From Alphaproteobacteria bacterium CG_4_10_14_0_8_um_filter_53_9 (GTDB lineage: Bacteria > Pseudomonadota > Alphaproteobacteria > UBA2136 > UBA6156), in NCBI GenBank assembly GCA_002791805.1, contig PFND01000009.1, forward strand, positions 1-38,227: a stretch of 38,227 nucleotides of DNA, written 5' to 3'. Position 1 is the stretch's first letter; each line of letters begins with the position of its first letter. The position numbers were made by a program, and so were the translations under genes. Positions 7,305-26,001 of the stretch are shown here, piece by piece. The notes beneath the pieces are model-generated. The model did no database searches. It was not told where the DNA came from and saw only the letters and a program-made list of their open reading frames with translations.

Positions 7305-8426
7305 TCACCGCAAAAGCCCAAAACGCCGTTCAGCCTCGCTAAATTTAGCGTCCATCCGCGCCGCATCTTCGCGCTTAAGCGCCGCTAAATGCTCGCTAAT
7401 CTCGCTTAAGGTAAGTTCTGCCTCCTCCAAACGCCGCTGCTTTAACGCAGTAAGCGCCGTTACCATCCCGCTAATATGCGTTAAATACTCGTTCATCTTC
7501 GCTAAACGTAGCCCCTCTAAAAGCTTCTCCCGTTTAAGCGCCGCATGAGCGGGGCCAAAAGCGCCTGCCGTAGCACTGAGAGCCTCTTCCCAGAACACCT
7601 CCAACGGCCAGCGAGAGCGGTTAGCGTCGCTTATACGGCGTACATAGCGTATATTTTGCAGCGCATGAGCGAACATGGTTCCCGCTTTTTCCTTAAAATC
7701 AGCGGCGCTTCTCGCGTCCCATTTGTCTAACTCTTCTTTACCCAAGCGCACTTCAACGCGCCAAACTTGCCCCTTGGGCCGCTTATCCATCCCCCAAACA
7801 TCATTCCAATAGAGCTTTTTAGCCGCTAAAATCTCCAAACTTTTATTGTAAAGCGCCACCTGCCGCCCGGGCATAGATCCCACGCGTATGGATTCCACCA
7901 CCTCGCCCCGCGTCACAGAATTCATGCCCATCTCGCCCTTCTTCGTGCGCTGATGCGCCACAAACAGCTCCGCCCTAGGTAAAAAAGCCTCTTCGGTGAA
8001 GAAATCAAAGCAGTAGTCCGCCCGCGCAATCTTCGCCACAAGGCCCAAACGCTGGTCACTCACACCCCATGCGCCAAGCTTGCCCAAAGTGTCATAAAGC
8101 CGCTCCCAAACCTCATCAAACGTCCGCACCAAAAAGCTGGCACTTCGCACACTCACCCGAATACCCCACCCTTTGGCGTTGTCAGAGTGAGACACAAACC
8201 AAACTTCCCCATCCTCTCCCGTGCTAAAACGATACCGAAAACCTCCTACCCCGCCCATCTCCGCCACTTCAACCAAAAGCCCATGCGGCCCTAAGGAACA
8301 CATAACAGGCTTTTTAGCCTCTTGTGCCTGATCTCGTGCCTCAGCAAGCTGTGCCAAAATCTCTTTGGGTAAAATCCCTTGAAAAGTAACATCTAACCCA
8401 TCAAAACCTTGATAAATCAGTTTCAT
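7305..8426 (-). CDS. Rep_trans-superfamily replication initiator / relaxase
   Basis: Start MKLIYQGFDGL at 8426 with AGGAGA SD; motifs ARADYCFD, VALYNK (candidate catalytic Tyr) and VWRVEVR match the R-x-D-x-x-x-D / Y-x-K / W-R-x-E pattern. Confidence 0.75.
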   Translation of the reverse strand: MKLIYQGFDGLDVTFQGILPKEILAQLAEARDQAQEAKKPVMCSLGPHGLLVEVAEMGGVGGFRYRFSTGEDGEVWFVSHSDNAKGWGIRVSVRSASFLVRTFDEVWERLYDTLGKLGAWGVSDQRLGLVAKIARADYCFDFFTEEAFLPRAELFVAHQRTKKGEMGMNSVTRGEVVESIRVGSMPGRQVALYNKSLEILAAKKLYWNDVWGMDKRPKGQVWRVEVRLGKEELDKWDARSAADFKEKAGTMFAHALQNIRYVRRISDANRSRWPLEVFWEEALSATAGAFGPAHAALKREKLLEGLRLAKMNEYLTHISGMVTALTALKQRRLEEAELTLSEISEHLAALKREDAARMDAKFSEAERRFGLLR

Positions 8427-11041: not shown

Positions 11042-11467
11042 TGGTGGAGGCGGCGGGAATCGAACCCGCGTCCGCACTTTGTTCAGCTGAGGCTCTACAT
11101 GCTTATTTTCTGGAAAATACCTTAAGCGCCAGCCCAGAAACCCGCCAGCTCAAAAGGTCGGTTGCTAAAAGATTTAAGTGTTGGCCGCAACCGGGCCGCT
11201 ACCGAGTTTCCAAGAAGGGTTTAGCCACCCAGACCGCACGCAAGGAAACTGGCGGAACGGAAGGATGGGGCTGAAGCTCAGCCTCCGAACCAACGGAGGT
11301 TATTGAGTTAGGCAGCCATCGCCATTGCCGGCATTGCGGCCGGACGGAAAGCGATCACGTTAGATTTTTTGGCATCTATGACCTTGCCCTCTTTTTTAAG
11401 GCGGGAGAGGGCGCCCTCCGCATGCTCCTCGAGGCCTTACGCCGCACGTCGAAACCTGTGCGCCCCC
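11042..11467 (-). ncRNA. ssrA: tmRNA, standard one-piece form, 426 nt
   Basis: 5' GGGGGCG pairs with 3' CGCCTCC-ACCA including G3.U; GGTTTCGAC after the 5' end; T-arm GCGGGTTCGATTCCCGC; tag ORF ends in AA-stop. Confidence 0.96.
11308..11373 (-). other. tmRNA tag reading frame AKKSNVIAFRPAAMPAMAMAA*
   Basis: ATAGAT followed by a GCC resume codon; 21 codons to TAA; C-terminal AA. Confidence 0.85.
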
Positions 11468-11550
11468 AAGGCCCTCATTGTAAGTAAACAAAAGCCCAAA
11501 AGCAAGGCAAATCGCTCGCTCAAAACACAGCTCGTTGCTACCCTCCCCGC

Positions 11551-12288
11551 ATGAAAATCACCCTCCTCCTCCCGCTCGCCCTTGCCGCCTGCACGGCAGA
11601 GCAAATGACCCAGGCCACAAACATGTTAAACACAGGCCTGCAAAGCCCCATGGCAAGCAGCGCCACAAGCCTCACCCAAAGCCAAATCGTGGCGGGGTTA
11701 AAGGAGGCTCTCACCATCGCCGCAACCAACGTCACGCAAAATCTGGGGCAAACAGGCGGATTTCTCAACAAGACAGATATCCGTATCCCCCTGCCCCAAA
11801 GCCTGCAAAACATCAAATCGGGTCTGCAAATGGCGGGCCTCGGCAGCTATGCCGATGAGGTGGAGACGAAAATGAACCGCGCGGCAGAGGCCTCCATGCC
11901 GCTCGCGAAGGAGAGCTTTATCAAAGCCGTCCAAAGTATGAGCATACAGGATGCCATGGGCATCTTAAACGGGGGCAATACCGCCGCCACAGATTATTTT
12001 AAACAGAAGATGACACCGGATCTCACCACAAAAATCACGCCCATCGTGCAAACCAAACTGAACGAGGCCGGCGCGCTGCAGGCCTATAACGGCCTTGTAA
12101 GTCAAGCCCAAAGCCTCCCCATGGTCAGCATGCTGGCCCCAAACTTGGGCCAAAATCTCACAACCTACGCGGTGGATAAAACCCTCGCAGGCGCCTTTAC
12201 CTATATGGGGAAAGAGGAAGCCGCCATCCGCACCAACCCCGCCGCCCGCACGACAGATCTGCTAAAACAGGTCTTCGGCACAAAATAA
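11551..12288 (+). CDS. DUF4197-family lipoprotein
   Basis: Lipobox LAAC; GLKEAL, IRIPLP, MNRAAE, AATDYF and EEAAIRTNPAARTTDLLKQVF motifs. Confidence 0.9.
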   Translation: MKITLLLPLALAACTAEQMTQATNMLNTGLQSPMASSATSLTQSQIVAGLKEALTIAATNVTQNLGQTGGFLNKTDIRIPLPQSLQNIKSGLQMAGLGSYADEVETKMNRAAEASMPLAKESFIKAVQSMSIQDAMGILNGGNTAATDYFKQKMTPDLTTKITPIVQTKLNEAGALQAYNGLVSQAQSLPMVSMLAPNLGQNLTTYAVDKTLAGAFTYMGKEEAAIRTNPAARTTDLLKQVFGTK

Positions 12289-15961: not shown

Positions 15962-18397
15962 ATGTCTCGTTCTCTTCATCTCCTATCAGCCACCACGGCG
16001 CTTGTCGCCCTGTCAGCTGCAGCTGCCCACGCAGATACTGTAACTGTCGATCCCTCTGCCGTCCTAAGTACAGACGCCAGCACAGATGGTTATCTTATTT
16101 CTAATACCGTCGTCGTTTCTTCCACCACCGGCGCAGGGATTAATATAGACAGTGCTAACGCAGCCAAAAACGTGATTACGGTAGGTACAGGCGCCACCAT
16201 TTCAACATCTACCGCAGGCATTGGTTCCATCTCTGCTACCATTGATGTTGCTGGCGGTCTGATCGATATTTCAGGAAGCGTCATTAACCATGGCACCAGC
16301 GGCAAAGCAATCGATCTTTCGTTGGATACAGACAGCGGCTACACAATTAACAACAGCGGTACCATCAGTGGTTCCATCGTCGGTTCAGGCGCAGCAGATA
16401 TCTTTAAAAACTCTGGCACCATCACAGGCGCGATTGATCTTGGCGCAGGTGCCAACCTGGTCAGCCAAACGGCCGGTACCATCACAGGTGATCTCACCAC
16501 AGGCGCCGGTGCGGATGTTATCGATCTTTACGGCGGTACCCTCACAGGGAACATCGTTGCAGGTGATACAGGTACCAACACCATTACCGTTAGCGGTTCC
16601 ACCGTTACTGGTAATATTACCGGTGGTGATGCCACAGATACCTTCAATCTCGTCTCCGGTACCGTCACAGGTAACGTGAACTTGGGTACAGGCACCAACA
16701 CTATCAACATCTCTGGTGGTACACTGGATGGTAACCTTACAGGTGGCGGCACAGAAACCTTGAACATGAGTGCCGATCACTTCACCCTGACAGGTACAGT
16801 TGATGTCAACACCCTCAACGTCACCGCTGGTATCACAGAAATTGCCAACACCTTCAGCAGCGCCTCCAACGCGGCCGTCTCCGCAGGCGCCACCTTGGGT
16901 GTCAGCACCACCAACACCCTCGGCACGGTTAACCTCGCCGCTGGTACCAACGGTGGTAAACTTCTTGTGGATGGAGATACCTCCCTTACCACAGGCGCCA
17001 TCACATGGGGTGTAGGTTCCCAGTTCCAAATCGAAGTTGCCAGCAGCACCTCCGTGGGTAACATCATCACCAGCGGTAACCTGGCCAACATCGATAACGC
17101 CAGCCTCAGCATCGTTATGGGTTCCAGCGCAGGTTATATCGCGTCAGGTACCAGCTTCGTGATTGTGGATCAAACAGGCGGTGCGGCCACCACAACACCT
17201 ACTTTGCTCACCACGCAAAACGGCTTGTACAGCTTCAACATCGCCCGTAACGGCGGTAGCGATATCAGCCTGACCATCCTGCGCGCCAGCACAGCCAGCC
17301 TGGTAACTTCCGCTGCTGGTAAAGGTGCAGCCGGTGCGTTGGATGCCCTCGGTGCCTCCTCCACCGGAGATCTGGCCACCATCCAGAACAACCTGACCTC
17401 TGCTTCTTCTGCCGCAGCGGTTAACAACATTGTAGAATCTTTGTCTCCCGCAACGGATACAGGTTCTGTTCTGGCCGGTGTCAACGTCGGTATTCAAGCC
17501 GGTAACAACATCTCCAACCGTTTGGCCAGCTTGCGTCCCGCAGGCGTCGCCACAGGGTCAGATGGTTACAACCGTCACATGTGGGTCCAAGGTTTCGGTA
17601 ACGTCGCCGAGCAAGACGACAAAGATGGCAACAAAGGTTACGATGCCACCACCGCCGGTGCCAGCTTCGGTATGGATACAGACAGCATCATGCCGGGTAC
17701 AACCCTGGGTGCAGCCTTCTCCTACGCCAACTCCAAAGTGGATAGCAACGCCTCCAACAATGCCGAGACCAACATCGATAGCTACATCGCAACCTTGTAT
17801 GGTTCCCGCGTTCTGGATCAAGGCTACTTCGTCAACGGTCAAGCCTCCCTTGGCTTCAACCAAAACGAGAGCGAGCGTCAAGTTGTTGGCTTTACCACCA
17901 AAACCAAAGGTGAGTATGACAGCATGCAGTACGGCCTCAAAGGTGAAGTCGGTCGCGATATCGCCTACGGCAACATGATCCTGACCCCACTGGCCAGCTT
18001 GCAGTACACCTACGCCAACCCGGATAGCTACACAGAGACAGGCCCTGCCGCCCTCACCGTCGATGGCGATGGTTTCTCCGCTCTGGATGCAGGCCTTGGT
18101 GGTACAGTTGCCTGGAACATGCCTCTTTCCAGCGGTGGCAGCATGAAGCCTGAGCTTCGCGCAAACTACCTCTACCGCATGGGTGATGCTCAAGCCGAAA
18201 CCAGCAGCCGCTTTGTGGCTGGTGGCACCGCCTTCCAAACATCAGGTGTTGAGGCCGATCGTTCTGCCCTTAACCTGGGTGCAGGTCTTACCATCGCCAG
18301 TGGCGCCGGTATGGATGTGAAAGTGGATTACGATGCCGATATCCGCAGCAGCTACACAGGTCACACAGGCCAAGTCAAACTGCGTTGGGCGTTCTAA
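15962..18397 (+). CDS. Autotransporter (type Va) with a Gly/Thr-rich beta-helical passenger
   Basis: Signal peptide ending AAAAHA; repeated GT[IVL]TG[ND][IVL] units; C-terminal beta-barrel (MWVQGFG...GQVKLRWAF) with terminal Phe. Confidence 0.93.
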   Translation: MSRSLHLLSATTALVALSAAAAHADTVTVDPSAVLSTDASTDGYLISNTVVVSSTTGAGINIDSANAAKNVITVGTGATISTSTAGIGSISATIDVAGGLIDISGSVINHGTSGKAIDLSLDTDSGYTINNSGTISGSIVGSGAADIFKNSGTITGAIDLGAGANLVSQTAGTITGDLTTGAGADVIDLYGGTLTGNIVAGDTGTNTITVSGSTVTGNITGGDATDTFNLVSGTVTGNVNLGTGTNTINISGGTLDGNLTGGGTETLNMSADHFTLTGTVDVNTLNVTAGITEIANTFSSASNAAVSAGATLGVSTTNTLGTVNLAAGTNGGKLLVDGDTSLTTGAITWGVGSQFQIEVASSTSVGNIITSGNLANIDNASLSIVMGSSAGYIASGTSFVIVDQTGGAATTTPTLLTTQNGLYSFNIARNGGSDISLTILRASTASLVTSAAGKGAAGALDALGASSTGDLATIQNNLTSASSAAAVNNIVESLSPATDTGSVLAGVNVGIQAGNNISNRLASLRPAGVATGSDGYNRHMWVQGFGNVAEQDDKDGNKGYDATTAGASFGMDTDSIMPGTTLGAAFSYANSKVDSNASNNAETNIDSYIATLYGSRVLDQGYFVNGQASLGFNQNESERQVVGFTTKTKGEYDSMQYGLKGEVGRDIAYGNMILTPLASLQYTYANPDSYTETGPAALTVDGDGFSALDAGLGGTVAWNMPLSSGGSMKPELRANYLYRMGDAQAETSSRFVAGGTAFQTSGVEADRSALNLGAGLTIASGAGMDVKVDYDADIRSSYTGHTGQVKLRWAF

Positions 18398-19898: not shown

Positions 19899-20071
19899 AA
19901 CAGTGATAAATCTCCTTAACTCAAGCGCTATAAACCACCCCCCATCAAAAAGCAACCCACGTATACACTTTTTTAAGCGTAAAAATAAAGCCTCACCAGT
20001 GCCCGTGCTCCCTCATCTTCCAAATCTTCTTAACGGGCGTAACCCATAAGCTATTCTTAGTTCTGGTAAAA

Positions 20072-20470
20072 TTATTGCTCTTTCATCAGATACACCATTC
20101 TTTCTTTCTGATACTCAGCAGATTCTTCGTAATAATCGGCTCGCACAGCATCAACAAGGGCAATGCCTTCATGCTGCACACTTTGCGCCGCATGGTAAAC
20201 GCTCTCGCCAAGCGAGTCAGACTGCATCCCTTCAATACGGTAATAATCCCCCATCGCATCGTGGTAAGCACTGCTGATTTTTGCCGTATTTTCAGCAACG
20301 CGCTCATTCATCACCTGCGTGGCAACCGTATCCATTTCATTTTTTATCTCGGCTTTTTTATAATGATACCATACGCTTAAAGAAACAACATAAGCCAAAA
20401 TACAGCACAGAATAAAAGGGAGAGGCTTAATCGGAGCCCCTTCCAAGGTGTTTGTGTATTTCAAAGACAT
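20072..20470 (-). CDS. Hypothetical single-TM protein
   Basis: 132-aa ORF; TAAGGAG SD; one hydrophobic helix. Confidence 0.75.
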   Translation of the reverse strand: MSLKYTNTLEGAPIKPLPFILCCILAYVVSLSVWYHYKKAEIKNEMDTVATQVMNERVAENTAKISSAYHDAMGDYYRIEGMQSDSLGESVYHAAQSVQHEGIALVDAVRADYYEESAEYQKERMVYLMKEQ

Positions 20471-20566
20471 TGTAACGTGCTCCTTAGGGTATAAAAGTTG
20501 CTCTTGAATAGATAGACAGCCTAACCCAAAGCCTCACCTGATCATGTAAGAAAGACAGGGGCAATA

Positions 20567-20583
20567 TATTAAAAAGGTATAAA
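20567..20583 (-). promoter_or_regulatory. KdpE-like box 1
   Basis: Minus strand TTTATA-CCTTT-TTAATA; TAGGCT -10-like hexamer 43 nt downstream. Confidence 0.6.
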
Positions 20584-20609
20584 AAAGCGAATGTCCAAAG
20601 TCTGTCAGG

Positions 20610-21311
20610 CTATACAGCCGTCGTATCAAACATATAGCCAATACCTTGGAGCGTACGAATAAACGGTGGCTCAACGCCATCCTTGCTCAACTTTTTGCGT
20701 AGCTGACCCATATACACGCGCAAATATTGCTGGTTATCCGTATGGGCAGGCCCCCACACCTGCTGGAGCAAATGCCGGTGTGTCAGGGCTTTATTGGCAT
20801 GAGAGGCAAGCTCTTCCAGCAGGCGGAACTCTTTGGGAGAAAGCTCCACCAACTCCCCAGAAAAAGAAACCTCATGCCGGGTAAAATCAATAGAAACATC
20901 TCCTACAGAGAGCGTCGTATCGCCCGCTTTTTGCAAAACAGCGCGGCGCAGCAGGCTCCTCACACGGGCAAGCAGCTCTTCCATGCCAAACGGCTTGGTA
21001 AGGTAGTCATCCGCCCCATTATCAAGGGCCTGGACAATATCCGAGGAGTCCGATCGTACAGAAAGAACAAGGATAGGCTGCTTGTGCCCCGCCTCACGCA
21101 GCTTGCCAATCACTTCCTGGCCGTCCATCATTGGCAGTCCCAAATCGAGAAGAAACAAATCAGGCTTAAGGGCATTGGCAAGGCGAACACCCGCCATACC
21201 GTCTTCCGCTTCATCCACTTTAAAGCCTTCATGGGTCAGGCCAATACGTAAAAATTTCCGAATCTGGCTCTCATCATCAATCACCAGAATACGCGATTTT
21301 ATATCATTCAT
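20610..21311 (-). CDS. kdpE: KdpE-type OmpR-family response regulator
   Basis: VIDDE, LLDLGLP, ALDNGADDYLTKPFG, THRHLLQQVWGP and YLRVYMGQLRKKL; ATGA overlap with kdpD. Confidence 0.9.
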   Translation of the reverse strand: MNDIKSRILVIDDESQIRKFLRIGLTHEGFKVDEAEDGMAGVRLANALKPDLFLLDLGLPMMDGQEVIGKLREAGHKQPILVLSVRSDSSDIVQALDNGADDYLTKPFGMEELLARVRSLLRRAVLQKAGDTTLSVGDVSIDFTRHEVSFSGELVELSPKEFRLLEELASHANKALTHRHLLQQVWGPAHTDNQQYLRVYMGQLRKKLSKDGVEPPFIRTLQGIGYMFDTTAV

Positions 21312-23581
21312 GCAGCGTTCTCCTCATTAAGGTTAAGGGGGGTTTCCGAGGGCAAAGGCAGGGTAATCACAAAGGCCACTCCACCTTTGTTGTCATCGGG
21401 CTGGCGCACGGTAATGGTTCCTTCGTGCGCCATCACAATCCCCCGGCAGATAGAAAGCCCAAGCCCGCTACCAGCCACTGTATGGTCTTCTTTGGCATAG
21501 CGGTGGAACTTATCAAAAATCTTGTCTTCTTGGCCCGCAGGCAGGCCGGGGCCAAAGTCCCTCAGGCTCACAGTCACGTGGCTATGATCTTTAACCACAT
21601 CCAGCTCTAAAGCGCTGTCCGTACCCGCATATTTTACGGCATTGTCATAAAGGTTGTAAAAAACCTGCCCCATCAGTATCGGGTCAATCCGCAAAAGGGG
21701 CATATCATCAGATGAGGGCATGTTCACGACAAGCTTGGGATTATATTTCTTCGCGCGTTTCAAGCTGTCTTCTAAAAGCTCCTTAAGCTCCACAAATTCT
21801 TTTCTAGGCATCAGGTAGCCGCTTTCAAGTTTCGCAACTTCTAAAACATTGTGGATAATATGATGAAGGCGCTCCGCCTCAGATCTTGCAGATGTAATAA
21901 GTTCCTGCCGTTCCTGGGCCGGCAGGCCCATACCCACCTGCTCCAAAGTAGAGAGGCTGCCAATAATGCTCACAAGGGGTGTTTTCAAGTCATGAGATAC
22001 CGAAGAGAGCAGCGCCGAACGAAGCGATTCTCTATCCGCCTGCGCCGTCGCAAGGCTCGTCGCCATCCGCAGTTGGCGCTGTCGCAGCGCCGTCGCAAGC
22101 AAGTCGGCATAGCTCCGGATAAAGACCGTTAAGGGAAGAGAAAGGTTGGATTGAGGCGTAGACGCCACATCAAACTTAATCCCCATAACCCCCAGCACAT
22201 CATCCTTAAACGCCAGGGGGCACCAAAGCCAGGGCTGTTGAGCCGTAGGTTGGCTGACCTTACGCTGCTTCATCGCCTCTTGTATCTGGCGTCTTACGCC
22301 GTCCGTATGAGAAATTTCAGAAGGAAAAACCTGCCAAACCCCCTCCTCTTCAGTCTTCAAAATAATCTGGGCGTCAAAACCAAGGGTTTTTTTCAGGTTA
22401 TAGAGAGCCCCTTCCACAATGTCATCAAGCTTATCCTGATAATTAATATCATAAAGCAAGCGCATAAGTGCCTTAGAGAAAAGACTTTCATAGCTTTTAT
22501 GCAGCACGAGCCTGTTGTTTGTATAGGCAAGGTACCCCACCGAAATCGTGGTCACCATAAACGCTAAAAACGTAAAAAAGTCTGCTGTTTTATCAAAGGA
22601 AAAATGAAAATACGGCGTCATGTAAAAATAATTAAAGGCAGCAAACTGCAAAACAGCAATCAAGCTGCTGGTTATCAGGTTAACCCTAAGGGCTGTAATC
22701 AGGGGCCCCGCAAGCAACAGCATCCCTGCCCCCGCAAAACTAAGGCCATAATAATACCAGGCCATATGCACCGCAATCAGCAACAGGGCATTGATAATAA
22801 GCGCATAAGCCGTCTCTTGATAAAACTGAGCCGATCTCACATCCACCCAAAGTAAAGATTTAGGGGGGTTGGTCTCCGGCACAACCTGACGCGCCACATC
22901 ACCCACATGGCTGGCCACAATGCTCAACATAAACTCTCTCAAACGGGCCAGATTAAGCGTTTTAAAAATAGATTGTTCCTGAGATTTCAAATAAGAAGGC
23001 AAAACAATGCCCTTGGAATAATACTGCTCCATCATGGCTTCAGGCGTCGCATCATACGCCACAAACTCATAAACATTTTTTCTTAAAAAAGCCATGTCGA
23101 TAAGAGATTCCGGCGGCCAGATAATCACCGGGTTGGCCAAATCTCCCATACGGTCTATCGCCAGAAGAGAGAGGGATGTATAAACATGAGTTCCCTGCTC
23201 CAAAAGGGATAAAATATGCGCCAGGCGCTTAAGGTGCTGCGCACGCGAAAGGCCCACCTGCGTCAGTTCCGGAATCACGACATGTCCGGGCTTTCGCTCC
23301 ATCAGTGCCGCAAAAACATCATCATCGTGCAAACCCGTCTTAACTTGGAGAATCTCAATATTATCCTCCTTAAAAAGAGGCATAGCACGGTCTTCACCCT
23401 CCACCAAAACCAGGGCCCCCCTGTCATGTTTAGAGAGTATGCTCTCAACCTCAGCTCCCAAACCTTTAAGTTGTGGGCCAAGGGGCAAAATACCAAAATG
23501 AACTTTCAGGTGGCCTTTAGAGGTCGGCGCATGCCTGTCTTCCAGCTCACCCCCCAAATGTTTTAACAACGTATTTTTCAC
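21308..23581 (-). CDS. kdpD: Degenerate KdpD-like sensor histidine kinase
   Basis: Diverged N-terminal KdpD domain; 4-TM block (FNYFYMTPYFHF); GAF-like region; H-box LLSSVSHDLKTPL; N/G/F boxes (NAVKY, DFGPG, IFDKF, GSGLGL). Confidence 0.88.
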   Translation of the reverse strand: MKNTLLKHLGGELEDRHAPTSKGHLKVHFGILPLGPQLKGLGAEVESILSKHDRGALVLVEGEDRAMPLFKEDNIEILQVKTGLHDDDVFAALMERKPGHVVIPELTQVGLSRAQHLKRLAHILSLLEQGTHVYTSLSLLAIDRMGDLANPVIIWPPESLIDMAFLRKNVYEFVAYDATPEAMMEQYYSKGIVLPSYLKSQEQSIFKTLNLARLREFMLSIVASHVGDVARQVVPETNPPKSLLWVDVRSAQFYQETAYALIINALLLIAVHMAWYYYGLSFAGAGMLLLAGPLITALRVNLITSSLIAVLQFAAFNYFYMTPYFHFSFDKTADFFTFLAFMVTTISVGYLAYTNNRLVLHKSYESLFSKALMRLLYDINYQDKLDDIVEGALYNLKKTLGFDAQIILKTEEEGVWQVFPSEISHTDGVRRQIQEAMKQRKVSQPTAQQPWLWCPLAFKDDVLGVMGIKFDVASTPQSNLSLPLTVFIRSYADLLATALRQRQLRMATSLATAQADRESLRSALLSSVSHDLKTPLVSIIGSLSTLEQVGMGLPAQERQELITSARSEAERLHHIIHNVLEVAKLESGYLMPRKEFVELKELLEDSLKRAKKYNPKLVVNMPSSDDMPLLRIDPILMGQVFYNLYDNAVKYAGTDSALELDVVKDHSHVTVSLRDFGPGLPAGQEDKIFDKFHRYAKEDHTVAGSGLGLSICRGIVMAHEGTITVRQPDDNKGGVAFVITLPLPSETPLNLNEENAA

Positions 23582-23605
23582 AGAAACCTTAAAAATTTTT
23601 TATTA

Positions 23606-23908
23606 TCAGGTAGAGGCATACGCCAGGCAATCACCCGCCAAAGGGAGCGTGCCACCATAAAGAACAGACTGGCTCATTTTAGATTTTCCCGCAAGGCCAC
23701 CCGTCACGTCAGGCACCACATCCTTCACGTCTTCAACGTCTTTAAACGGGTCAATATCAATCTCGTCATCCAACCGTTCATCAAGCGTCTTTTCATCCTC
23801 TTCCTCTGGAGGAAGCCCACTCATCTCATATCCCCAAATATCAAAAGGGGGAGAGAGATTGTCATCCTGCAATGTCGGTACATCTGGCAAAAACAGAGTC
23901 ATCATCAT
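23606..23908 (-). CDS. Small acidic hypothetical protein
   Basis: GGGGAGGGG SD before MMMTLF; 100 aa, Asp/Glu-rich; ends 24 nt before the kdpD start. Confidence 0.6.
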   Translation of the reverse strand: MMMTLFLPDVPTLQDDNLSPPFDIWGYEMSGLPPEEEDEKTLDERLDDEIDIDPFKDVEDVKDVVPDVTGGLAGKSKMSQSVLYGGTLPLAGDCLAYAST

Positions 23909-23927
23909 CCCCTCCCCATCGTAACGG

Positions 23928-24056
23928 TTATTCTCCGGAGCCTTGAATCTGCTCACCGGTCTTTTCCACATCCTGGCCAAATCCTTCAACCGTGTTACCA
24001 CCGCCCACATAAGCCACAGCACCAACAATAATCAACGCAACAACAAGTAATCCCAT
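23928..24056 (-). CDS. Entericidin (EcnA/B)-like small protein
   Basis: Hydrophobic N-terminus then NTVEGFGQDVEKTGEQI; AAGGA SD; 42 aa. Confidence 0.8.
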   Translation of the reverse strand: MGLLVVALIIVGAVAYVGGGNTVEGFGQDVEKTGEQIQGSGE

Positions 24057-24153
24057 CGTCTTTATCCTTTTTTGTTTATAAGCATCTAAGGATGCTGTGA
24101 CGGGACAATAGAAGAAAACCACCTAAAAAATCTCTTCTCTAAATCTACCAGAA

Positions 24154-24170
24154 CATAAAAAAAACATAAA
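24154..24170 (-). promoter_or_regulatory. KdpE-like box 2
   Basis: Minus strand TTTATG-TTTTT-TTTATG; TATTGT 43 nt downstream. Confidence 0.6.
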
Positions 24171-24172
24171 AG

Positions 24173-24197
24173 AAAAGGAGGCCATCAAGCCTCCTTT
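24173..24197 (-). terminator. Terminator after the OmpA-family gene
   Basis: Minus strand AAAGGAGGC-TTGATG-GCCTCCTTTT. Confidence 0.75.
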
Positions 24198-24212
24198 CAA
24201 TAACAACCCAGG

Positions 24213-25097
24213 TTAGTAGGTCGTTTTTTTCATCATCTTGGTTTTTGTTGCTTCCGCATCAATGCCAACCACCACACGGCGGTTAGCTTCAAGGGCCACA
24301 CCATCGGCTGTAGGCACGGCATTACGGGTCTCACCCTCAGATTTCACCTCAATACGGAACTTGGATGCCGGTAACCCAAGGTATTCCGCCACAGCATTCG
24401 CACGGGCACGGGAGAGTTTTTCGTTATACGCCGCACTTCCTGCACGGTCGGTATGTCCGATAATCACAACAGATCCGTCCTCAGCGGTCTCAAGGCGGTT
24501 ACGGATAGCATCCAAAGTCGCCTTCGCCTCATCGCGCAGAGTAGCTTTGTCAAAATCAAAGTAAAGCGTGGCAATGCCTTCAATATTTTTAGTCATCATC
24601 ACTTGCACTTTTTTCGTAACGGGCACAGCCGCAGTCAGCCTGGGCAGCTGGCGCGCCGCGTTGATATAACCGGCTCTACAGTTCGTCATGTTGTGGCTCA
24701 TGTTCATCCCTGTTTCCTGCTGTTCCACCCAGCAATCATAGTACGCAAGAGCCCATGCCATGGCTTGGGGGTATTCATTTTGCGTTCCGGCATTCAGCCA
24801 GGCGTTCAGGCGGGCATGTTCCGCCATAAGGTCAGCTTGGCTACTTCGCACAAAACGCACACTGTCCATACGGGGGTGGGGTACAATATCACCGTAAAGC
24901 GCACGGCGCTCCTGCTCTTCAAGCACCAGAGAATCTTCAATATCAAAGCCCTGGTTCTCGCTTTTGGCCAACATATCGTAGGCATAAGCAAGGGTTTTTC
25001 TAAAAGCGGGGGTACCATCGGCCGCATAGGGGGCAGAAGCAAGCAGCGTAAAGCCGGCAAGCATGGTCATCGTCGTGGTTGTCATGGGGTTATGCAT
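24213..25097 (-). CDS. OmpA-family peptidoglycan-binding protein
   Basis: Signal peptide; YDCWVEQQE helical domain; C-terminal LYFDFDKA...GHTDRAGSAAYNEKLSRARA...NRRV. Confidence 0.92.
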   Translation of the reverse strand: MHNPMTTTTMTMLAGFTLLASAPYAADGTPAFRKTLAYAYDMLAKSENQGFDIEDSLVLEEQERRALYGDIVPHPRMDSVRFVRSSQADLMAEHARLNAWLNAGTQNEYPQAMAWALAYYDCWVEQQETGMNMSHNMTNCRAGYINAARQLPRLTAAVPVTKKVQVMMTKNIEGIATLYFDFDKATLRDEAKATLDAIRNRLETAEDGSVVIIGHTDRAGSAAYNEKLSRARANAVAEYLGLPASKFRIEVKSEGETRNAVPTADGVALEANRRVVVGIDAEATKTKMMKKTTY

Positions 25098-25183
25098 GGC
25101 ATGTCTCCTTATTTGTTCATGTTAGACACCTCATCTTATAAAGACCTTTTATTAAAAAAGATGCGTAAAAAGCGGGGAGGTTT

Positions 25184-25200
25184 TATTAAAAAACCATTAA
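25184..25200 (-). promoter_or_regulatory. KdpE-like box 3
   Basis: Minus strand TTAATG-GTTTT-TTAATA; TATAAG 43 nt downstream. Confidence 0.55.
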
Positions 25201-25246
25201 AAAAGAGGAGGCAAGCCCTCCTCTCCTTCTCTTATATAAGCAGCGC

Positions 25247-25429
25247 TTACGGTCTCCGTATCATCCCAAACACCAGGGCAATAATCGCAAAGATAATCGC
25301 AACCCAGAACAAGAGTTTAGCCCCGGCCATAGCCGTACCGGCAATTCCGCCAAAGCCTAAAAGAGCGCCCACAATGGCAACAATTAAAAAGATGACAGCC
25401 CAATGAAGTAAATTACCAACTTGAAACAT
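25247..25429 (-). CDS. DUF1328 (UPF0391, YtjA-like) small membrane protein
   Basis: LLHWAVIFLIVAIVGALLGFGGIAGTAMAGAKLLFWVAII; AAGGAG SD. Confidence 0.92.
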   Translation of the reverse strand: MFQVGNLLHWAVIFLIVAIVGALLGFGGIAGTAMAGAKLLFWVAIIFAIIALVFGMIRRP

Positions 25430-25522
25430 ATAAAGTCTCCTTACATTCGATGTTATTAAAGTTTATGTGTGCCCGATCAAAATCATTCCTAACCGGCACT
25501 ATAAGCAGGTTGATAGAATTTA

Positions 25523-25559
25523 CATAAAAACGATATAAGTCTCTTATCGCTTTTTTATA
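25523..25559. promoter_or_regulatory. Back-to-back KdpE-like boxes 4 and 5
   Basis: Minus strand CTTATA-TCGTT-TTTATG (25523-25539) faces DUF1328; plus strand CTTATC-GCTTT-TTTATA (25543-25559) faces the 25613 gene. Confidence 0.55.
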
Positions 25560-25612
25560 AAGAAACAGGCTAAATATCCACGTTGTTTAACTCAACCAAG
25601 AAAGGACAACTC

Positions 25613-25855
25613 ATGACAACAGGAAAAAACACAAACCTCATCCTCAGTATTCTTCTAGGTGCCATTGCCGTTATTGGGGTCATTTATGTACTTCAGCAGC
25701 CCCGCACAGTTGACGATCGCATGGATGCCGCCGTCGAGCAACTCCAGCAAGGCAATCTCGGTAACGCTGTAGATAATCTGGATAATCAAACCAATGGTGA
25801 ACAACTTAAGTCGGATATGGAAAATGCCGTCGAAAGCATGGACACCAATCGCTAA
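25613..25855 (+). CDS. Small membrane-anchored hypothetical protein
   Basis: AAAGGA SD before MTTGK; one TM helix then an acidic helical tail. Confidence 0.75.
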   Translation: MTTGKNTNLILSILLGAIAVIGVIYVLQQPRTVDDRMDAAVEQLQQGNLGNAVDNLDNQTNGEQLKSDMENAVESMDTNR

Positions 25856-25871
25856 ACTCAAAGCATGGTAA

Positions 25872-25902
25872 AAAGAAAACCCGCCAAAAAGCGGGTTTCT
25901 TT
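25872..25902. terminator. Bidirectional terminator
   Basis: AAACCCGC-CAAAAA-GCGGGTTT between the convergent 25613 gene and tRNA-Trp. Confidence 0.8.
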
Positions 25903-25925
25903 GTATCGTTTATATGAAAAGTCTA

Positions 25926-26001
25926 TGGCAGGGGAGACAGGACTCGAACCTGCAACCAATGGTTTTGGAGACCACTACTCTACCAATTGAGCCACTCCCC
26001 T
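25926..26001 (-). tRNA. tRNA-Trp(CCA)
   Basis: Reverse complement AGGGGAGTGGCTCAATTGGTAGAGTA-GTGGT-CTCCAAA-ACCAT...GGTTCGAGTCCTGTCTCCCCTGCCA, 76 nt. Confidence 0.97.

Follow-up and report, generated by a model that had tools for sequence, protein, structure and literature searches.

The window analysed in the present study is a stretch of 38,227 nucleotides (nt), contig C63 of an alphaproteobacterial genome (G000) that comprises 1.27 Mb in 98 contigs and is 89.9% complete. The nearest relatives of this genome in public records are uncultured alphaproteobacterial metagenome-assembled genomes (MAGs), and the sequencing runs that carry the window DNA are labelled as groundwater metagenomes. At positions 20072-25855 the window holds the genes of a KdpD/KdpE two-component system. 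An initial annotation had described this pair as lacking kdpFABC and as neighbouring an entericidin-like gene, an acidic open reading frame (ORF), an OmpA-family gene, DUF1328 and two genes for small transmembrane proteins, with a KdpE-like box of the form 6-N5-6 in front of each of five putative transcription units. The gene content was borne out by Pfam and ORF evidence, and the five boxes were found at their given positions and strands.

All genes of the locus are located on the minus strand, save the last one, which is divergent and encodes a small membrane protein. The central series consists of an entericidin-like gene (ecn, 23928-24056, 42 amino acids (aa); PF08085 at 28.1 bits, cut-off 23.3), the acidic ORF of about 100 aa without Pfam family (23606-23908), a gene for a KdpD-like histidine kinase of 757 aa (21308-23581) and kdpE (20610-21311), which encodes a response regulator of the OmpR/PhoB family with the Pfam domains Response_reg and Trans_reg_C. 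The gene kdpE follows directly on kdpD with an overlap of 4 nt (21308-21311), and the series as a whole is joined by overlaps or intergenic gaps of 19-24 nt. In a terminator scan no terminator-like sites were present in these gaps, and those inside kdpD were weak (3-4 G-C pairs). Upstream of this series lie the OmpA-family gene with a peptidoglycan-binding C-terminal domain (24213-25097, minus strand; PF00691, E 5.9e-18), the gene for the YtjA-like small membrane protein DUF1328 (25247-25429, minus strand; PF07043) and the divergent ORF for a small single-pass membrane protein without Pfam family, here termed TM90 (25613-25855, plus strand, with the likely start ATG at 25613). Downstream of kdpE, an ORF for a single-pass membrane protein of 132 aa (TM132, 20072-20470, minus strand) represents a first putative target gene; no Pfam family matched it at E<=0.01.

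The regulator matches PF00072 (E 5e-29) and PF00486 (E 3e-22), and its best relative of solved structure is E. coli KdpE (4KFC, E 1.2e-56), compared with 1e-45 for the next family, MtrA. The residues R193, R200 and T215 of E. coli KdpE, given as needed for DNA binding in the available excerpt of PMC3264566, are kept in the window protein as R198, R205 and the T in 'FIRTLQG'. Among the six receiver-domain ORFs of the genome, KdpE is the sole match to Trans_reg_C. Judged by these similarities, the window regulator is a KdpE by descent, yet one that would be unable to activate kdpFABC, as the genome has no match to kdpA or kdpC.

The sensor has retained its C-terminal part with DUF4118 (PF13493), HisKA (PF00512) and HATPase_c (PF02518), and its N-terminal domain PF02702 is still recognised with 53.2 bits (cut-off 26.1) but over profile positions 76-210 of 210 alone. 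In an alignment of eight such orphan KdpDs with two canonical KdpDs of 899 aa, the phosphorylation motif SHDLKTPL (H) as well as the N, G1 and G2 boxes are invariant in the orphans. The Usp block of about 140 aligned columns is absent from all eight orphans and present in both canonical proteins, and no Usp Pfam match was obtained for the window KdpD. At the position of the Walker A motif the window protein reads GILPLGPQLKG instead of the GAAPGVGKT of canonical relatives, and at Walker B ..IPEL.. instead of ..IDEL... The GKT is missing from the six orphan KdpDs of the window's own family; remnants (..EKT, ..GKV) are kept in G017 and G023, which belong to sister families. According to the available excerpt of PMC11018627, Walker A (G-X5-GKT) is required for the phosphorylation of KdpB S162 by KdpD, and its decay therefore fits a long-standing absence of the pump. 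A single-protein search with the N-terminal half of KdpD against the contigs of the genome collection returned no close relatives.

The pump itself was sought with family profiles. In the 89.9% complete assembly, KdpA (PF03814) and KdpC (PF02669) gave no match, and KdpB (TIGR01497) gave just two matches, which scored 52.8 and 51.1 bits where the cut-off is 527.9, the level of generic P-type ATPases. Loss of kdpFABC from this genome is thus likely; due to the completeness of 89.9% its absence is not proven. A distant kdpABC as the real target of KdpE, named in the initial annotation as the outcome that would speak against it, did not come to light: no match to KdpA was obtained in any of the seven genomes that hold this type of kdpD and are 88-97% complete (the window genome and six relatives). 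Kup is the sole K+ uptake system detected in the window genome, where TrkH was not found and no box is located upstream of kup. Within the order, KdpA was found in one of 29 genomes, namely G012, in the form of a kdpA fragment (503 bits) on the 3 kb contig C147 (L035); this genome also has a kdpD of the type without Walker A. The fragment could stem from contamination (2%), from a second system or from a pump that was kept.

The boxes are direct repeats of 6 bp half-sites with a spacer of 5 bp. Box 1 (TTTATA-CCTTT-TTAATA; 20567-20583, minus strand) points toward TM132, box 2 (TTTATG-TTTTT-TTTATG; 24154-24170, minus strand) precedes ecn-acidic ORF-kdpD-kdpE as a putative autoregulated promoter, and box 3 (TTAATG-GTTTT-TTAATA; 25184-25200, minus strand) precedes ompA. 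In these three, both half-sites begin with TT. The last two boxes share the divergent promoter region and have a first half-site beginning with C: box 4 (CTTATA-TCGTT-TTTATG; 25523-25539, minus strand) points toward DUF1328 and is followed by a third phased half-site, TCTATC, and box 5 (CTTATC-GCTTT-TTTATA; 25543-25559, plus strand) points toward TM90, with its TTTATA half located 11 nt before TAAATA. When the genome was ranked with a matrix built from relatives only, box 2 was the top-scoring site, box 1 had rank 12, the weaker box 4 had rank 37, and boxes 3 and 5 fell outside the top 40.

The initial annotation had cautioned that some such matches could arise by chance in AT-rich spacers, and the frequency of the motif was therefore determined. 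The pattern YTWATV-N5-TTWATR, derived post hoc from the five boxes, has five matches in the window against 0.24 expected and only six in the whole 1.27-Mb genome, so that five of six are the window boxes, all in a 5-kb stretch. In 5000 dinucleotide shuffles of the four local AT-rich spacers, the mean was 0.026 and the maximum 2, and none reached 5. Since the pattern was fitted post hoc, a period test that is blind to the motif was run as well: direct repeats of hexamers (at least 5 of 6 positions identical) at period 11 numbered 16 in the spacers compared with 3.5 +/- 2.9 in shuffles, of which 5 in 1000 reached 16, and no enrichment was seen at periods 8-10 and 12-14. By these counts the motif is uncommon in AT-rich spacers. 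The sixth genome-wide match, TTTATGGGATTTTTATA, is located on the minus strand of contig C76 (position 7485) in a gap of about 690 nt between uvrB and uvrC. It was considered as a regulatory site and rejected, having no evident downstream gene, and is treated as chance or unexplained. The same gap contains two DnaA-box-like 9-mers, TTATCCACA (C76, about 7400-7600).

The spacing between boxes and -10-like hexamers provides a second line of evidence. The minus-strand hexamers TAGGCT (20518-20523), TATTGT (24105-24110) and TATAAG (25135-25140) start 43 nt downstream of boxes 1, 2 and 3, respectively, as had been proposed; TAAGAT is found two bases beyond the start of the third. The corresponding distance at E. 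coli PkdpFABC is 42 nt, and the single TAnnnT within 70 nt at E. coli PkdpF is TACCCT at offset 43. Relative to the putative starts implied by these hexamers, boxes 1-3 are located at about -72 to -56. The E. coli KdpE site TTTATA-N5-TTTACA has a footprint from -72 to -50 (available excerpt of PMC3264566). For a wider comparison a set of 22 sites was curated, which comprises the five window boxes, 14 matrix matches that are outside long ORFs and face a gene start, and three sites of L036 chosen by eye; matches inside long ORFs, phase-shifted duplicates and matches not facing a nearby start were left out. In this set TAnnnT occurs at offset 44 in 6/22 sites and at offsets 43-46 in 10/22, the mean being 0.5 per offset, and by eye several other sites have CAnAnT at that offset. 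A TAGGGT in L036 and L037 has the same distance from its box as the TAGGCT after box 1.

The divergent pair follows another geometry. No TAnnnT is present 43-46 nt downstream of box 4, and a common -10 spacing was sought for boxes 4 and 5 and not found. In L039 and L040, TTTATAAAGAAA followed 10-11 nt later by TAAAAT or TAAATA is kept before the gene homologous to TM90. The second half-site TTTATA with AAGAAA and, 10-11 nt on, TAAAAT/TAAATA is conserved in three genera before this small membrane gene. This arrangement suggests that box 5 overlaps the -35 region. In the PhoB pho-box, an OmpR-family direct repeat lies about 10 bp upstream of the -10 element and replaces the -35 element. Box 5 before TM90 has a similar placement with another regulator and another half-site, and the likeness extends to no more than one or two of the five promoters. 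Of the five KdpE-like boxes put forward, boxes 1-3 fit both the definition and the 43-nt spacing, and boxes 4 and 5 are weaker and have a different geometry. A further placement was observed in L041 (7846) and L042 (10601) of G017 and G023, where only about 22 nt separate the end of the strong boxes TTTATAGAATTTTTATA and TTTATAGTTTTTTTACA from the earliest start codon available to kdpD.

Synteny and conservation of the boxes, which the initial annotation had named as checks, were followed in the collection of 29 genomes of the order. Eight of them (G000, G002, G005, G008, G009, G012, G017 and G023) carry a long KdpD-like gene, the seven relatives representing six other genera, and KdpA was not found in six of the seven. 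The identity across relatives is 51-77% for KdpE (77% in G009) and just 26-39% for KdpD. In all seven fetched relatives, kdpD-kdpE neighbours some of the genes for OmpA, the entericidin-like protein, DUF1328 and homologues of TM132 and TM90. OmpA-family orthologues adjoin kdpD in 6/7 relatives, the entericidin-like gene is kept in L036, L037, L038 and L042, homologues of TM90 are divergent from DUF1328 in L039 and L040, and a weak relative of TM132 (32% over 73 aa) is located downstream of kdpE in L038. The loci of relatives add further genes of the stress type, with CsbD in G008 and DUF2383, PRC-barrel and DUF883-like genes, along with MgtC, in G017 and G023. DUF1328 occurs in exactly the eight KdpD-bearing genomes and in none of the 21 others.

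Boxes of the form TTTATA-nnnTT-TTTATA recur before DUF1328 (G017, G023), OmpA (G012), the DUF883-like and DUF2383 genes (G017, G023), kdpD or the ORF preceding it (G002, G005, G017, G023), and others. In G009 (59% G+C) the boxes are degenerate and still recognisable; its DUF1328 gene is located on another contig, yet by eye TTAATA-CAAGT-TTTACC is present upstream. The recurrence before orthologous genes spans genomes of 41-60% G+C. Matches to the strict pattern at the locus and in the whole genome number 1/1 in G002, 2/3 in G005, 1/2 in G009, 1/10 in G012, 2/33 in G017, 2/21 in G023 and 0/3 in G008, which gives nine at the loci against about 0.75 expected (a hand estimate from locus size over genome size). 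Three genomes of the family without the island have 2-6 strict matches each. Among the listed runs none of RNA covers 20000-26000. Contigs from four groundwater DNA runs are identical to the window wherever the spacers are covered, and there is therefore no variation by which constraint on the boxes could be tested.

Beyond the order, the alignment of the eight orphan KdpDs was used as a query and yielded 80 distant loci, 58 with kdpA/B beside kdpD and 22 without a pump gene in the flank. In the 58 canonical loci (868 kb, mostly 59-67% G+C) the pattern derived from the window has ten matches, and all ten are located 314-564 nt upstream of kdpA; the pattern learned from the window thus amounts to the motif of the kdp promoter in canonical alphaproteobacteria. 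Moreover, two kdpFABCDE relatives at class level show by eye the phased upstream repeats TCTATA-TGACT-TTTATA and CCTTAC-GCGTT-CCTTAC. Among the 22 loci without a flanking pump gene, DUF1328 is found near a KdpD-like gene and KdpE in three: L169 in a MAG labelled Rickettsiales, L191 in an alphaproteobacterial MAG and L210 in a Fimbriimonadaceae MAG. No match to KdpA was obtained in these three genomes (G041-G043), which belong outside the order and whose KdpD-like genes encode proteins of about 660 aa with, by reading, a Usp-like segment at the start. Five of the 22 genome-wide matches of G041 lie within 8 kb, two of the seven of G043 within 100 nt, and two of the 80 of G042 at the locus. Two boxes of G041, one preceding DUF1328 and the other an acidic ORF that lies upstream of kdpD, are followed by TAnnnT at offset 44. 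The same genome encodes an additional single-domain receiver protein of 124 aa between the KdpD-like kinase and KdpE (L169, 8470-8844). In L189 (34% G+C) five pattern matches occur in 8.7 kb.

The reading favoured here, and regarded as probable, is that of an orphan KdpDE system with retained box specificity that drives local envelope and stress promoters. The repurposing from K+ uptake to a stress regulon, as put forward in the initial annotation, is supported as far as computation reaches by the missing pump, the rarity of the motif and its conservation. In this scheme kdpFABC would have been lost and KdpD/KdpE would have outlived the pump. KdpD keeps its membrane, GAF-like and histidine-kinase parts and has lost both the Usp domain and the Walker A motif of its N-terminal serine-kinase domain, for which KdpB is the only substrate known. 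KdpD may still sense K+ or turgor and would then phosphorylate KdpE, which would keep the classic specificity for the 6-N5-6 direct repeat TTTATA-N5-TTTAYA. Phosphorylated KdpE would bind the boxes as an activator and recruit RNA polymerase from about -64, as at PkdpFABC. The predicted targets are its own operon, in which the entericidin-like gene and the acidic ORF would take the place of kdpFABC, the TM132 gene downstream and the OmpA-family gene, and probably DUF1328 and the divergently encoded TM90, where the geometry differs. Given the layout of ecn-acidic ORF-kdpD-kdpE, autoregulation from box 2 is plausible.

Several points weigh against this reading. The steps of binding and regulation are predicted from sequence. 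In a preprint on Caulobacter, chromatin immunoprecipitation sequencing (ChIP-seq) led to the proposal of a quite different KdpE motif, TCGAMRACGCSMKC (available excerpt of 10.1101/2023.07.05.547876). Boxes 4 and 5 start with C and are without the 43-nt spacing, and the ATG of TM90 is just 53 nt after box 5. The low ranks of boxes 3, 4 and 5 under the relatives' matrix, where T-rich sites elsewhere score as high, count in the same direction, and 'five' is too confident a number of functional boxes. The placement about 22 nt before kdpD in G017 and G023, which is kept between two families, misfits the 43-nt geometry. The list of 22 sites used for the spacing is curated, and the sites of the relatives come from a search whose matrix had been trained on the window, the three of L036 from inspection by eye. 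Box 2 starts 3 nt after the stem of the intrinsic-terminator-like hairpin of ompA (24173-24198, minus strand; 11 pairs, 5 G-C, with the T-tail running into box 2), and box 3 starts 0 nt after that of DUF1328 (25199-25229, minus strand; 13 pairs, 5 G-C), so that in both the first half-site doubles as terminator T-tail. The order 'hairpin, then box' recurs in L036, L037 and L038, and the adjacency has the look of a terminator packed closely against the promoter that follows and not of an artefact. In 7/8 genomes DUF1328 and kdpDE are at the same locus, and physical linkage, alone or as much as function, may account for their co-occurrence. Not every genome with this kdpD type has lost the pump, on account of the kdpA fragment in G012. 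Finally, a contig with kdpFABC or with a second OmpR-family regulator could be missing from the 98-contig assembly. In the window genome one Trans_reg_C protein and no CtrA-like regulator were found, an uncommon state for an alphaproteobacterium, and the lack of a CtrA-like match hints that some sequence may be unassembled.

It is unlikely, on balance, that the boxes are real cis-elements that follow another logic, being read by another DNA-binding protein (a nucleoid protein or an OmpR-family regulator missing from the assembly), or in part serving KdpE as sites of repression, notably at the DUF1328/TM90 pair and at the 22-nt kdpD sites of G017 and G023. With about a tenth of the genome unassembled, another reader would have room; the position of box 5 over the -35 region, 10-11 nt before the -10-like TAAATA and conserved in L039 and L040, suits PhoB-style activation or repression; and the boxes of G017 and G023 abut the kdpD start. 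However, KdpE is the sole Trans_reg_C protein found, the site documented for KdpE in the available excerpt of PMC3264566 is a direct repeat of TTTAYA with an 11-bp period, the -35 regions at boxes 1-3 are by reading poor and fit dependence on an activator, and the boxes occur solely where kdpDE occurs.

That the boxes have no regulatory role and resemble KdpE sites by coincidence, having arisen from AT-rich spacers, from the T-tails of terminators and from UP-element-like T-runs in a gene cluster that is locally AT-rich, appears quite improbable. The spacers have 33-40% G+C compared with about 49% in roughly delimited intergenic DNA genome-wide, boxes 2 and 3 coincide with terminator tails, the pattern was fitted post hoc, and T-rich sites elsewhere score as well under the relatives' matrix. 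Nevertheless, shuffles that keep the dinucleotides of these same spacers yield 0.026 matches on average where five are observed, the enrichment is confined to period 11, and all other terminators and spacers of the genome supply one further match. Furthermore, the pattern picks the region upstream of kdpA alone out of 868 kb of canonical loci, the distance to the hexamer is within 1 bp of that in E. coli, and the boxes recur before orthologous genes across 41-60% G+C. Most remote is a KdpDE that still regulates K+ uptake, with kdpFABC or another K+ transporter in the unassembled tenth or elsewhere as main target and the local boxes as secondary: the incomplete genome, the presence of Kup and the kdpA fragment of G012 leave it some room, against which stand the failure to find KdpA in the seven genomes with this kdpD type and in G041-G043, the loss of the Walker A motif for acting on KdpB, the lack of a box upstream of kup and of a detectable TrkH.

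The proposed orphan KdpDE system shares with that of E. coli the overlapping kinase and regulator genes, the TTTATA-type half-site, the N5 spacing and the DNA-contact residues. In E. coli positive autoregulation results from the position of kdpDE downstream of a KdpE-dependent promoter. The window system differs in that it is without pump, has several target promoters, is predicted to place the entericidin-like gene and the acidic ORF behind the autoregulated promoter, and has a KdpD without Usp and Walker A. E. coli KdpE was characterised as a single-target regulator by genomic SELEX (available excerpt of PMC5934670). Action of KdpE on targets beyond kdp, including virulence genes in pathogens, is proposed in review text citing Freeman et al. 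2013 (excerpt of PMC6584805), and more than 100 ChIP-seq sites were reported for Caulobacter KdpE (excerpt of preprint 10.1101/2023.07.05.547876). The pathogens and Caulobacter still have the pump, which stays the main target there, whereas in the window nothing but the predicted extra targets remains, and these adjoin kdpDE and bear canonical boxes. Short KdpDs of Deinococcus keep the serine kinase and have lost the histidine kinase, in species without KdpE (excerpt of PMC11018627). These forms and the window KdpD have both dropped part of the tandem kinase, although the reduction is opposite, as the window KdpD keeps the histidine kinase together with KdpE while its serine-kinase motifs decay. 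The pump-less forms are outside the scope of the KdpD survey in that source, which, as far as its excerpt states, took only species annotated with Kdp(F)ABC.

The kinds of target genes recall general stress regulons. In Salmonella, sigma-S tightly controls small proteins that include ecnB, yjbJ (CsbD) and ytjA (DUF1328) (available excerpt of PMC5437024). The sigma-S and PhyR-NepR-sigma-EcfG regulons contain the same kinds of targets, but control in the window would be exerted by a two-component activator with sigma-70-type -10 hexamers and no alternative sigma factor. PhyR (PF22029) gave no match in the window genome and in all eight genomes bearing the island, and none of the six receiver-domain ORFs of the window genome has the size or architecture of PhyR. 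Four sigma-70-family genes are present in this genome, two of them of the extracytoplasmic function (ECF) type, and one adjoins a gene for a 217-aa membrane protein read as NrsF-like. PhyR with a divergent ECF sigma neighbour was found in only five genomes of the order, all of genus g7 (G006, G011, G013, G015 and G016), and 16 genomes have neither PhyR nor the island. The overlap between the five PhyR genomes and the eight island genomes is zero, an outcome that chance alone gives with a probability of about 0.17 by a hypergeometric estimate, and all five PhyR genomes belong to one genus; KdpDE and PhyR as alternative stress controllers are thus suggestive and not significant.

In a broader and distinctly tentative reading, for which the odds are below even, pump-less KdpDE would be a recurrent, self-contained module that is gained or lost as one island and acts as master switch of a miniature general stress regulon in several streamlined lineages, replacing sigma-S or PhyR/sigma-EcfG. 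The lineages would comprise this groundwater order of alphaproteobacteria, no fewer than two further alphaproteobacterial MAGs and an Armatimonadota MAG, with the serine-kinase motifs of KdpD decayed or its N-terminal domain gone, and the regulon would draw on entericidin-like, DUF1328, CsbD, DUF883, DUF2383, PRC-barrel and OmpA-like genes. A literature search gave no description of pump-less KdpDE with such a regulon among the matches listed. KdpDE, the KdpE box and extra KdpE targets in some bacteria are already known; new as far as searched is the combination of pump loss, trimmed kinase, retained cis-code and contiguous stress and envelope regulon with recurrence in several lineages.

KdpDE is a textbook two-component system devoted to one operon, and the locus shows a possible outcome once that target is lost: the DNA specificity of the regulator and the promoter geometry would be kept, the sensor would shed its pump-directed parts, and the pair would be retained for small proteins that elsewhere are under stress sigma factors. 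The locus would then be a clean example, provided by nature, of a regulon that was rewired while its cis-code stayed the same. A testable function, induction by K+ or osmotic stress, is also offered for several families whose function is unknown, namely DUF1328, the entericidin-like proteins, the acidic ORF and the two small membrane proteins, and the box with its 43-nt spacing provides a computational handle for the same module in other uncultured lineages.

Some further properties of the neighbouring genes were recorded. Entericidins EcnA/B have a lipoprotein signal peptide with a lipobox Cys. The entericidin-like product of 42 aa contains no Cys and hence no lipobox, and from its sequence it looks like a membrane-anchored relative and not a lipoprotein. 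The acidic ORF has 23 D+E versus 6 K+R in the 98 residues translated from 23606-23902, and an acidic ORF is located in the equivalent position between ecn and kdpD in L036. In L037 and L038 this position is taken by an ORF-X of 181-184 aa, which was considered as a homologue and set aside since homology could not be shown. A contig of the groundwater run X3 differs from the window at 23661-23801 by five substitutions and an in-frame insertion of 6 nt inside the acidic ORF, the rest of the locus being identical, which is consistent with a coding, fast-evolving, low-complexity acidic protein. TM90 is followed by a bidirectional terminator-like hairpin (25876-25899, terminator scan) and by tRNA-Trp (25926-26001). 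Upstream of the locus and unrelated to the KdpDE finding, the window additionally contains a transfer-messenger RNA gene with the tag AKKSNVIAFRPAAMPAMAMAA (11042-11572) and an ORF for an autotransporter-like protein of 811 aa (15962-18397).

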